DNA from: an uncultured bacterium
Lineage (GTDB): Bacteria; Krumholzibacteriota; Krumholzibacteriia; JACNKJ01
DNA: 64,000 nt
Assembly: GCA_963695095.1 (NCBI GenBank)
Contig: CAVOFT010000001.1
Location: 2,912,001-2,976,000, forward strand
Reading direction: 5' to 3'
In this document: piece after piece, positions 42,715 to 53,388 of the stretch
How positions within the stretch are numbered: position 1 is the first letter of the stretch
Layout of the letters: every line of letters starts with the position of its first letter
Position numbers and translations under genes: made by a program
The notes under the pieces: generated by a model
Seen by the model: the letters and a program-made list of their open reading frames with translations, nothing else
Databases searched by the model: none
Told to the model about the DNA's origin: nothing

Positions 42715-48278
<5,564 letters not shown>

Positions 48279-51121: not shown

Positions 51122-51312
51122 CCCCACCTCCCGGATAGGTTCCGAAGCTCCTGCTGCTCCATTTTGACAGCGTGGCCGGCGTCGATCAACCCCGATCCGC
51201 GTTGCCGATCTTCGAATCGATGATTCCGGTAAGCGATGCTGAATCCTCCGGCCGTCGGTGGGCATCGAAACCGCACTGGAAGCAAATCCCCGATTCCGAA
51301 CCGGAGGTCCCC

Positions 51313-52387
51313 ATGCGTCGCTCCCTATCGCCCTTGGTGCTGGGCCTGGCCTTGCTCGCCACGGCCAGCCAGGCGATCGCCGTTCCCCGCACCATGCTCT
51401 TCGAGAAGTTCACGAACACCGGTTGACCCGCCTGCGCATTGGCGGAGCCAATCTTCTTGCAGTTCGTCGACGATCACCCGACCGACACGGTGGCCATCCT
51501 CTGGCATGCGAACTTCCCCTACCCGGTCGATCCCTTCTACACCCACAACATCACGGACAACCAGGGCCGCATCGATTGGTATGCGATCGCCAGCGTGCCC
51601 AGGATCAAGGTGGACGGGATCACGTCCTCGACCAGCTACTGCCGGGATGACCACCAGCTACAACAATCGCCTGGCGGTGCCGACCGATCTCAGCCTCGAG
51701 ATCACGGGCAGCTGGGACCCGCAGACCCGCGCCGTCTCCGTGACCGCGACGGCGACGACGACGAGCGCTCTCACCAACGATTACGTGCTGCACATCGTGC
51801 TCACCGAGAGCGAGGTCTACTACGAGGCCACGAACGGCATCGACTGGCACGAGCACACGATGCGCGACGCTCTGCCGAGCTTCGCCGGCTCGCCGGTCAC
51901 CTTCAGCGGCGACTTCCCGCAGACGGCCGTGGTCACGGCCGACTTCACGCTGCCCATGGGCGCGCCGCCGCACGAGTACCGGCCCGAGTTCTGCAAGATC
52001 GTCTGCTTCGTGCAGCAGGTGAGCACGAATTCGGGCTTCCGCGAGGTGCAGCAGGCGGCCGCCGTCGCGCTCACTGATCTTGCGCAGACCCCGGTGGCCG
52101 AACTGGCCGCGGCGCCCAGCCTGGGGCAGCCCTACCCGAACCCCTTCAACCCCGAGACGGCAATTCCCGTGCGGCTCGCCGCACCGGGCGATGTCGCCTT
52201 GCGGATTCTCGACGTGGCTGGACGGCGCCTGCGCACGCTGCAGGAAGGTCATCTGAGCGCCGGCAGCCATCAACTCCACTGGGACGGCCGCGATGACGCG
52301 GGCCGGCCCGTGGGCAGCGGCGTCTACCTGGCCCAGCTCATCCACGCCGGCGGTCGCGAGAGCCGCCGGCTCGTGCTCCTGAAGTAG
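51313..52387 (+). CDS. Omp28-like thioredoxin-fold protein with in-frame TGA (probable Sec, UPAC) and FlgD/T9SS-like CTD; frameshift near 51640
   Basis: MRRSLSPLVLGLALLATASQA...LFEKFTNTG-TGA-PAC...WH..FP...DPFY...R..WY....VP.IKVDG; HIVLTE, HEHTMRD, VCFVQ, PYPNPFNP; GGAGG RBS. Confidence 0.8.
51438..51452 (+). promoter_or_regulatory. Candidate bacterial SECIS hairpin
   Basis: ATTGGC-GGA-GCCAAT begins after an 11-nt spacer following TGA 51424-51426; loop starts with G. Confidence 0.55.
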
Positions 52388-52476: not shown

Positions 52477-53388
52477 CTAGGGCAGCTTGAGCAGCTTCAC
52501 CGCCTGTCCGTCGGGCTGTCCCGCCAGCCGGGCAAAGTAGGCGCCCGCGGGCAGGTCCCCAGCATCCCAGCGCGCGCCGCCCTCGCGCAGCGGCAGCTCG
52601 GCCACCTGGCGCCCGGCGACATCGAAGATGGCCGCGCGCGCACCCGGATCCGCAGCGAGCGCGCGCAGTTCCACGAAGCGCGTGAAGGGACTGGGCCAGG
52701 CCCGCAAGGCGAGCGCGGGGGTGGCCGGCGGCGCCGCCGTCGGATCGCAGGAGTACGCGAAGGCGACATCATCGAGCCAGCCCTGGTCGCCGATCACCTC
52801 CATGTTGTCGATCACGATGATGCAGTAGCAGAAGGGCTCGCTGGCCCGCGGCTCCGACAGCGCCAGCACGGTCGGCCCGCCGTCCTCGACGATCGTGAGC
52901 GCAATGGTCTGCGCCAGCGGATCGTAGGCCAGGGTCATGCGGTAGGCGTAGACGTACTCCAGCGGCGAGGTCACGCTGACGATCTCCTGCTCGCCGCTCG
53001 TCTCGTCGTAGCTGTAGATCGCGACAGCGCTCAGGCCGATCTTCGCGATGAAGCCCCAGTAGTGCCCCTCTTCCTGGCTGCCGCCGCCGATGAAGAAGCG
53101 GAAGTGCCCGCCGTAGTCGGTGCTCGAGGAGAAGCCGAAATCCGCCGCCACGGAGGCCTCCGCGCTGTAGCACTCGCCGCAGGGCTCCCGGTAGATCATC
53201 TCGCCGTAGGTGTTGGCCTGGGCCACCACCCGCTGGCCCTGGATGTAGAGCAGGGACGCGAGCGGCTCCCAGGGAGCCGTGAGCGGGCCATCCGCACGAT
53301 TGAAGTTGTCGAAAAACAGATCGGCGGCCGCCGGCTGGATGCCGAGGCCGCCGCAGATCAGGACCGTCACCAGCACTGCACGTCGCAT
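52477..53388 (-). CDS. Secreted hypothetical protein with abbreviated T9SS-like CTD
   Basis: Signal peptide, FFDNFNRADG, WLDDV; AWPSPF...IFDVAGRQV...PAGAYFARL...KLLKLP. Confidence 0.7.
   Translation of the reverse strand: MRRAVLVTVLICGGLGIQPAAADLFFDNFNRADGPLTAPWEPLASLLYIQGQRVVAQANTYGEMIYREPCGECYSAEASVAADFGFSSSTDYGGHFRFFIGGGSQEEGHYWGFIAKIGLSAVAIYSYDETSGEQEIVSVTSPLEYVYAYRMTLAYDPLAQTIALTIVEDGGPTVLALSEPRASEPFCYCIIVIDNMEVIGDQGWLDDVAFAYSCDPTAAPPATPALALRAWPSPFTRFVELRALAADPGARAAIFDVAGRQVAELPLREGGARWDAGDLPAGAYFARLAGQPDGQAVKLLKLP

Follow-up and report, generated by a model that had tools for sequence, protein, structure and literature searches.

We examined a gene interrupted by an in-frame TGA codon in a 64,000-nucleotide stretch of DNA from an uncultured bacterium of the lineage Krumholzibacteriota (assembly GCA_963695095.1, contig CAVOFT010000001.1, positions 2,912,001 to 2,976,000). 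The whole stretch is referred to as the window, and positions are counted from its first letter. The open reading frame (ORF) that starts at the ATG at 51313 reads MRRSLSPLVLGLALLATASQAIAVPRTMLFEKFTNTG and then meets the TGA; when it is read through, the frame goes on as P-A-C-A-L-A-E-P-I-F-L-Q-F-V-D-D-H-P, which gives the codon the context E-K-F-T-N-T-G-U-P-A-C (U, selenocysteine [Sec]). An initial annotation had placed this TGA in the first position of a CxxC-like motif within a continuing frame, followed, after an 11-nt spacer, by a 6-bp stem with a GGA loop. The motif and the continuing frame were borne out when the sequence was re-checked, and every coordinate given there was correct. The stem is a perfect 6-bp inverted repeat, and the distance from the TGA to the loop is 17 nt.

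As assembled, the frame opened at 51313 ends short of 52387, and the coding sequence passes from frame 1 to frame 2 at about 51640, where ...V-D-G-I-T-S-S-T-S-Y of frame 1 continues in frame 2 as A-G-M-T-T-S-Y-N-N-R-L-A-V-P-T-D. With TGA read as Sec and the base at 51640 skipped, the product is 357 amino acids (aa) long and aligns without gaps to the orthologue of genome G001 (357/357 residues, 72% identity, no other stop). By inspection, its N-terminus has the n-h-c layout of a signal peptide, with A-I-A preceding the predicted cut and no lipobox cysteine, and the N-termini of both orthologues from the same genus match this layout. To judge from the comparative evidence presented below, this gene very probably encodes an exported UxxC selenoprotein that resembles HBP35, the 35-kDa hemin-binding protein of Porphyromonas gingivalis, carries a tag for secretion by a type IX system (T9SS), and has Sec at the TGA codon.

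TGA alternates with cysteine codons at a single position of the family

We searched 41 related genomes in six frames with the 116-aa N-terminal part of the read-through protein and obtained matches in 19 of them. The same family gave matches in all of its 11 genomes, a second family in all of its 6, and a third in 1 of 6; the remaining 17 gave none. Exactly one TGA is present in 31 of the 71 matches listed (our own count), and the other matches have no stop. The two same-genus orthologues, which are 69% and 67% identical to the N-terminal query, each have one TGA at the position of codon 38, with no other interruption in their reading frames of 357 and 354 codons.

Scanning of the fetched loci with the motif pattern [ED]x[FYGM][TSG][NSA]xx[stop or C]xxC returned 45 distinct instances, in which the codon of interest is TGA (n = 30), TGC (n = 11), or TGT (n = 4), and never TAA or TAG; the pattern misses some copies, since two CxxC paralogues of the window's genome do not fit it. 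In-frame TGA codons of the motif-bearing genes are confined to the column that aligns with Cys. The initial annotation had taken the TGA for a Sec codon, and the homologues do switch between TGA and Cys at exactly this codon (30 versus 15). In a protein alignment of 37 sequences, neither the U/C column nor the second Cys varies; 8 of the 45 instances were left out of it (five near-duplicates, two copies truncated at the edges of their loci, and the broken copy of the window itself). A maximum-likelihood tree of these 37 rows implies at least three switches between Sec and Cys, with one pair of Cys sequences nested in the main Sec clade. Repeated switching between Sec and Cys is usual for selenoprotein families.

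The window's genome has three CxxC paralogues and at least five Omp28-like paralogues. One paralogue, which lies on the minus strand about 10 kb past the end of the window (L021, G000:C1:2985313-2988777), likewise carries TGA in frame at this place in the motif (...AEMGSATW-U-VYCP...). Its protein is longer (an open frame of 631 aa), with a C-terminal domain of the kind seen here; the hairpin is less regular, pairing over 3-4 bp in this register around a loop other than GGA, and the gene sits on a long branch together with one gene of G007. Among relatives, tandem arrays of three or four paralogues are found at L055 (G004:C14:76500-82500), L049 (G009:C5:43500-50000), L056 (G011:C43), and L031 (G007:C60), and typically consist of three TGA copies and one Cys copy. 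In the tree, from which the G004 copies were left out as near-duplicates, the Cys copies of G009 and G011 nest within the Sec clade.

The hairpin downstream of the TGA codon covaries among TGA genes

For a covariation test, the 30 TGA genes were aligned gaplessly, and the helix proposed in the initial annotation was extended to 8 bp. Pairing cells amount to 77.5%, compared to 63.5% in column shuffles, and none of 500 shuffles reaches the observed value; owing to the shared ancestry of the sequences, the support is overstated by both the shuffle and the rank tests and by their P values. Sliding the 3′ arm by 1-3 columns reduces pairing to 31-52%. Changes on both sides are found in 8 of the 8 pairs, and the covariation score is 0.47 versus 0.22. 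Stems of at least 5 bp at this register are present in 25 of the 30 TGA genes and in 0 of the 15 Cys genes, and the 27-nt stretch folds with an average energy of −9.9 kcal/mol in TGA genes versus −5.4 kcal/mol in Cys genes. Relative to the orthologues, the hairpin of the window carries a compensatory double change from C-G to U-A, by which the pair is kept.

The constraints published for bacterial selenocysteine insertion sequences (bSECIS) include an apical loop of 3-9 nt and an upper stem of 4-16 bp, as well as a G in the first two loop positions and a distance of 16-37 nt from UGA to the loop (PMC13188914, legend of Fig. 2). The window hairpin, with its 3-nt GGA loop, 6-bp stem, and 17-nt spacing, satisfies these figures. 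The SECIS-like hairpin of the initial annotation therefore both agrees with the published constraints and belongs to a stem that covaries in the 30 TGA genes. We regard it as a compact but standard bSECIS.

The genome encodes the selenocysteine machinery and uses TGA as an ordinary stop

The window belongs to a 3.64-Mb genome in 2 contigs that is 93.5% complete. Four genes named in the initial annotation, selA, selB, selC, and selD, are all present, each above its curated cut-off: the genome profile search gave 429.8 bits for selA (cut-off 267.9), 336.8 bits for selB (362.1 with a second stretch; cut-off 242.25), and 342.4 bits for selD (cut-off 125), and tRNA-Sec (selC), with the anticodon TCA as assigned by ARAGORN, scores 71.9 bits (gathering score 47). 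One in-frame TGA lies inside selD (L018, G000:C1:69142-70107, minus strand), which is thus itself a selenoprotein gene, reading ...SAGG-U-SAK.... The selD hairpin (GGUCC-GGA-GGACC, given as a 6-bp stem with a GGA loop) has a UGA offset identical to that of the window gene. Elsewhere in the genome, TGA terminates 362 of 747 long ORFs supported by G+C content at third codon positions (GC3) and is therefore an ordinary stop; on this ground, we rejected a genome-wide reassignment of TGA.

The protein is predicted to combine a thioredoxin domain with an Omp28-like sandwich

Residues 90-252 of the read-through protein match the Pfam Omp28 model PF11551 (51.8 bits, gathering score 34.9), and residues 288-339 match the FlgD_ig model PF13860 (39.7 bits, cut-off 27). 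The family profile matches thioredoxin 1fo5 over its N-terminal 90 positions (E = 7.3e−07), HBP35 of P. gingivalis (5y1a; E = 1.1e−06), and Omp28 (2r2c; E = 1.5e−05). An AlphaFold 2 (AF2) model of the core of an orthologue (249 aa, built with the 37-row alignment) has a mean predicted local distance difference test (pLDDT) score of 93.1 and consists of a thioredoxin fold followed by a beta-sandwich. The best Foldseek match of this orthologue model is again HBP35 (5y1a; E = 6.9e−14, TMq = 0.79, 13% identity). In the HMMER alignment, the family motif xERtVLlElFtNtgC-xx-C aligns to HBP35 residues 35-64, with the U/C and C columns falling on Cys48 and Cys51 and U38, accordingly, on Cys48. In terms of the model, the U-P-A-C redox center would lie at the start of helix 1 of the thioredoxin domain. 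The view that Omp28-type proteins carry such a motif, expressed in the initial annotation, holds in part: the Pfam Omp28 model describes the beta-sandwich and not the motif, whereas the motif does occur in an N-terminal thioredoxin domain, as it does in HBP35.

The C-terminus of the read-through protein matches the T9SS type A sorting domain (TIGR04183; 26.9 bits, cut-off 23, residues 274-354), and the two same-genus orthologues score 26.5 and 25.4 bits on the same model. Our search for the T9SS core covered the PorU, SprA, and PorV models. The genome encodes the PorU sortase (438.4 bits, cut-off 420) and SprA (423.7 bits alone, 532.5 with a neighboring stretch, cut-off 200). The T9SS-like C-terminal domain of the initial annotation has thus gained a sorting-domain match above threshold, together with PorU and SprA above theirs. 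The final ~80 positions of the PorU model have matches in about forty further ORFs across the genome, which suggests that many proteins here carry such a C-terminal domain and that T9SS cargo is abundant. From these sequence matches, we take type IX export to the surface to be the most likely route for the protein. A search with a single orthologue returned mostly unrelated proteins that have the C-terminal sorting domain alone in common with it, and these tail-only matches come from metagenome-assembled genomes (MAGs) labelled Latescibacterota, KSB1, Krumholzibacteriota, Gemmatimonadota, Eisenbacteria, and others.

Taken together, the observed TGA/Cys alternation, covarying hairpin, Sec machinery, fold, and TIGR04183 sorting domain support what the initial annotation had proposed, namely a Sec redox protein with a signal peptide and a T9SS-like C-terminal domain.

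Several homologues in sequence databases start after the TGA codon

In a collection of 5.8 billion proteins, most of the matches to the redox/Omp28 core (P0005-P0027) have lengths of 246-315 aa, and they cover 69-88% of the query; the core-covering matches among those listed are either unnamed or called "hypothetical protein." Of seven matches that we retrieved, four begin just after the Sec codon (e.g., MEPIFLQF...) and two are CxxC forms of full length. The seventh is the protein called in the window itself, which begins past the frameshift (MTTSYNNRL...). Gene callers do, then, split genes of this kind as the initial annotation had stated, with database homologues starting right after the TGA and the call in the window starting after the frameshift.

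Relation to known protein families

As far as sequence and models allow a comparison, the window gene is closest in architecture to HBP35. As predicted for the window protein, HBP35 has a signal peptide, an N-terminal dithiol thioredoxin domain, an Omp28-like sandwich, and a T9SS C-terminal domain; it differs in having Cys in place of Sec, in its sequence (~13% identity), and in coming from a different phylum. Recombinant HBP35 is described as reducing insulin faster than E. coli thioredoxin, with the C48S/C51S mutant being inactive, and as binding hemin (PMC2907840).

The NCBIfam family NF045500 ("Omp28-related selenoprotein") appears in the table of a 2026 review as "Hypothetical protein GOS_C" with the motif UxxC (PMC13188914). 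For GOS_C, Zhang and Gladyshev reported 74 Sec sequences and 312 Cys homologues, and their 2008 prediction gives it a thioredoxin-like fold with UxxC and no known function (PMC2398784). Scores of the two same-genus orthologues on NF045500 are 28.3 and 33.7 bits. Among 208 genomes of this phylum, none reaches the cut-off of the model and 69 have weaker matches; one TGA is present in 60 of the 95 matches listed (our own count). A bona fide member of NF045500 was found in a MAG labelled Candidatus Neomarinimicrobiota (L148, G208:C112:3319-6528; 596.3 bits, one TGA). It reads ...FVEDFTGLN-U-PYCPSAS..., is closely followed by a small hairpin whose loop begins with G, and aligns to the window protein with 21% identity over 273 positions (E = 1e−08), U38 falling on U52. 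GOS_C and the window protein share UxxC, the alignment of Sec on Sec, a thioredoxin-like fold, and a Pfam Omp28 domain, whereas the GOS_C member L148 ends not in a T9SS domain but in an Asp-rich, dockerin-like repeat (Dockerin_1, 21.5 bits, cut-off 22.9). Given the 21% identity, the alignment of Sec on Sec, and the low NF045500 score, we place the window protein in the same superfamily as GOS_C, probably working in a like manner, but on a separate branch with a different sorting tail. The novelty suggested by the initial annotation is reduced accordingly: the prediction of UxxC selenoproteins related to Omp28 dates from 2008, under the name GOS_C, and NF045500 is their curated model; the window gene represents a divergent, unannotated branch of that superfamily.

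The Omp28 outer-membrane lipoprotein of P. gingivalis (2r2c; NF033782; PF11551) has the beta-sandwich in common with the window protein, which differs from it in lacking a lipobox and in having a thioredoxin domain with a redox motif and a T9SS tail. An identity as an Omp28-like lipoprotein was rejected because there is no lipobox and the NF033782 score, 25.6 bits, is below the cut-off of 150. Within the thioredoxin superfamily, exported selenoproteins of the DsbA-like, DsbG-like, and thiol:disulfide interchange types likewise carry UxxC on a thioredoxin fold; the review describes them as predicted to be extracytoplasmic and known from bioinformatics alone (PMC13188914). They differ from the window protein in belonging to PF01323, NF041057, and PF13098, and none is listed there with an Omp28 or T9SS domain. 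Our literature search returned nothing that connects selenocysteine to Omp28 or HBP35, or type IX secretion to selenoproteins, and the terms "Omp28," "hemin," and "signal peptide" are absent from the main texts of PMC13188914 and of the deep-Sep paper PMC12013277.

Evidence against the selenoprotein reading and alternative explanations

Besides the non-independence of the sequences, several results weigh against the reading of the window gene as an intact, T9SS-exported selenoprotein gene. In the assembled sequence, a +1 frameshift, with an extra T at 51640, interrupts the gene. The read-through protein scores 31.6 bits on NF045500, far below the cut-off of 200, and the PorV-like gene that adjoins porU scores 112.3 bits against a cut-off of 250. 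The hairpin of the window is the weakest of the family (−5.5 kcal/mol) and is not the minimum free energy (MFE) structure, with pair probabilities of about 0.045 and z = −0.89 for positions 51424-51460, and RNAalifold returned no consensus pairs on the alignment of the 30 TGA sequences. No public-run contig covers 51405-51650, so that both the TGA and the extra base are outside coverage.

As for the hairpin, the MFE of the single sequence favors a CCGCC/GGCGG helix that uses nt 5-9 after the UGA, bases that would, by inference, sit inside the ribosome when the UGA is in the A site. An Rfam search over 51300-51600 gave no relevant match, only two chance matches (E = 3.4 and 8). Because the hairpin of the window is not thermodynamically notable on its own, the support for it is comparative and does not come from the single sequence.

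The frameshift can be judged by its surroundings. Over the ~17-20 kb of the window that are comparable with both same-genus relatives, there are two frame breaks, one in the gene studied here and one in metH, ~6 kb away. On the minus strand, metH breaks frame within about 45300-45330, near 45320, probably through an assembly indel; at this place the relatives read straight through ...RFSGLE...IR.DSN.F.VGERTNV.... Elsewhere, selA, selD, PorU, and SprA gave single-frame matches. These breaks suggest an indel frequency in this part of the assembly of roughly one per several kb. Because metH is broken likewise, and a true lesion in methionine synthase is improbable, we regard the extra base at 51640 as probably an assembly error rather than a real lesion. 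Contigs from four public runs, with shares of at most 0.10 of sampled words, span 51345-51382 and 51655 onward. Contigs 99% identical to 51655-51826 occur in seawater (DNA) and estuary (RNA library) metagenome runs, and contigs of similar identity at 51789-51948 occur in wetland and sediment runs; these read shares are too small to name a habitat or to claim expression, and the RNA-library contig over 51655-51826, which has one mismatch, was not counted as evidence of expression.

If the insertion is nevertheless real, the gene would be a recently dead pseudogene of a true selenoprotein, in which TGA is the ancestral Sec codon but no full-length protein is made. Such a fate is plausible in a redundant family with at least five Omp28-like paralogues in the genome, where a copy can be lost, and it would fit both the presence of the extra base relative to both orthologues and the weakness of the window hairpin within the family. 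We consider it unlikely, though it is the alternative to be taken most seriously: the same kind of break in metH, a conserved housekeeping gene only 6 kb off, points to assembly indels; apart from the one base, the alignment is gapless at 72% identity with no other stop; and the compensatory double change in the hairpin implies recent selection.

The other explanations deny Sec at the codon altogether, and we give each of them very little credence. TGC or TGT becomes TGA by one substitution, and the assembly has other errors, so that the TGA might be a nonsense mutation or a miscall in an ordinary CxxC gene with a coincidentally conserved context. Yet orthologues from separate assemblies have the same TGA, as do dozens of paralogues across the family (31 of 71 and 60 of 95 matches listed), TAA and TAG never occupy the codon, and TGA co-occurs with a hairpin that Cys genes lack. 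The open, homologous frame past the TGA would also be expected if the codon were read as a standard amino acid, through a reassigned code or near-cognate read-through without Sec. This is highly improbable in a genome where TGA is a normal stop (362/747 ORFs), where in-frame TGA is limited to the Cys-aligned column, and where the Sec machinery and a SECIS-type hairpin are present. Finally, since homologue entries in the database begin just after the TGA, the locus could be thought to hold two genes, one for a secreted peptide of 37 aa that ends at the TGA and one for a downstream protein that starts from the TTG at 51439. A protein begun at the TTG, however, would be without a signal peptide and would miss half of the redox motif; the full-length Cys homologues P0022 and P0027 are single proteins across both parts; and AF2 folds the U region as part of one thioredoxin domain (pLDDT 95-98). 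A two-gene arrangement is thus scarcely credible.

Features of the locus

The features of the gene are collected in Table 1. Immediately downstream, on the minus strand at 52477-53388, lies a gene whose product also has a sorting-domain-like tail (...FDVAGRQVAELPL...GAYFARL...VKLLKLP).

TABLE 1 Positions of the gene's features within the window; residue numbers refer to the read-through protein
Feature	Position	Strand	Basis
Start codon and predicted Sec-type signal peptide (MRRSLSPLVLGLALLATASQAIA)	51313..51381	+	Cleavage site placed by eye, AxA rule
Thioredoxin-like domain (predicted), residues 24-109, frame 1, contains U38-P-A-C41	51382..51639	+	Profile matches, AF2 model of orthologue
In-frame TGA, codon 38, predicted to be read as selenocysteine U38	51424..51426	+	Alignment with homologues and HBP35
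Spacer of 11 nt between TGA and stem	51427..51437	+	Sequence
TGC, putative resolving cysteine C41 of UxxC	51433..51435	+	Column invariant in 37-sequence alignment
Candidate bSECIS-type hairpin: ATTGGC (51438-51443), GGA loop (51444-51446), GCCAAT (51447-51452)	51438..51452	+	
One extra T (TAC-T-GCC), frame shifted by +1	51640 (about)	+	DNA alignment with two same-genus orthologues
Omp28-like beta-sandwich (PF11551), residues 90-252, spans the frameshift	51580..52069	+	
FlgD-Ig-like/T9SS type A sorting domain, residues 274-357	52133..52384	+	TIGR04183, PF13860
TAG stop	52385..52387	+	

Proposed function and implications

In the reading that we favor, of an HBP35-like exported selenoprotein, SelB with Sec-tRNA(Sec) would be recruited by the GGA-loop hairpin 11 nt after UGA-38, and selenocysteine would be inserted. 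The resulting 357-aa precursor would consist of the signal peptide, the thioredoxin domain, the Omp28-like beta-sandwich, and the type IX C-terminal domain. It would cross the inner membrane, most likely via the Sec translocation pathway, and be exported by the T9SS (SprA, PorV, and PorU), which would release it or anchor it at the cell surface, where it may act as a selenol/thiol-disulfide oxidoreductase. Insertion of Sec, export, surface location, substrate, and electron donor are all parts of this scheme that we infer.

More tentatively, and at a little short of even chances, we conjecture that these proteins are cell-surface selenoenzymes attached by the T9SS that have been tandemly expanded in the lineage, a locus having as many as four paralogues side by side, of which typically three carry Sec and one Cys. 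In that case, the lineage and neighboring T9SS-bearing phyla would spend selenium on an extracellular redox system, which may serve to reduce disulfides, metals, or heme-bound iron outside the cell, or to resist oxidants. To our knowledge, extracellular use of selenocysteine of that kind has not been demonstrated experimentally in bacteria.

The window gene leaves the understanding of selenocysteine decoding unchanged. It does point to a branch of exported redox proteins that is systematically mis-annotated and that the NF045500 model does not reach. It also links the GOS_C family, which has long lacked characterization, to HBP35, whose structure is solved and whose thioredoxin activity has been measured, and to type IX secretion. 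We suggest that this link offers a testable idea of where such proteins would work, at the cell surface, and of their chemistry, selenol/thiol-disulfide exchange.

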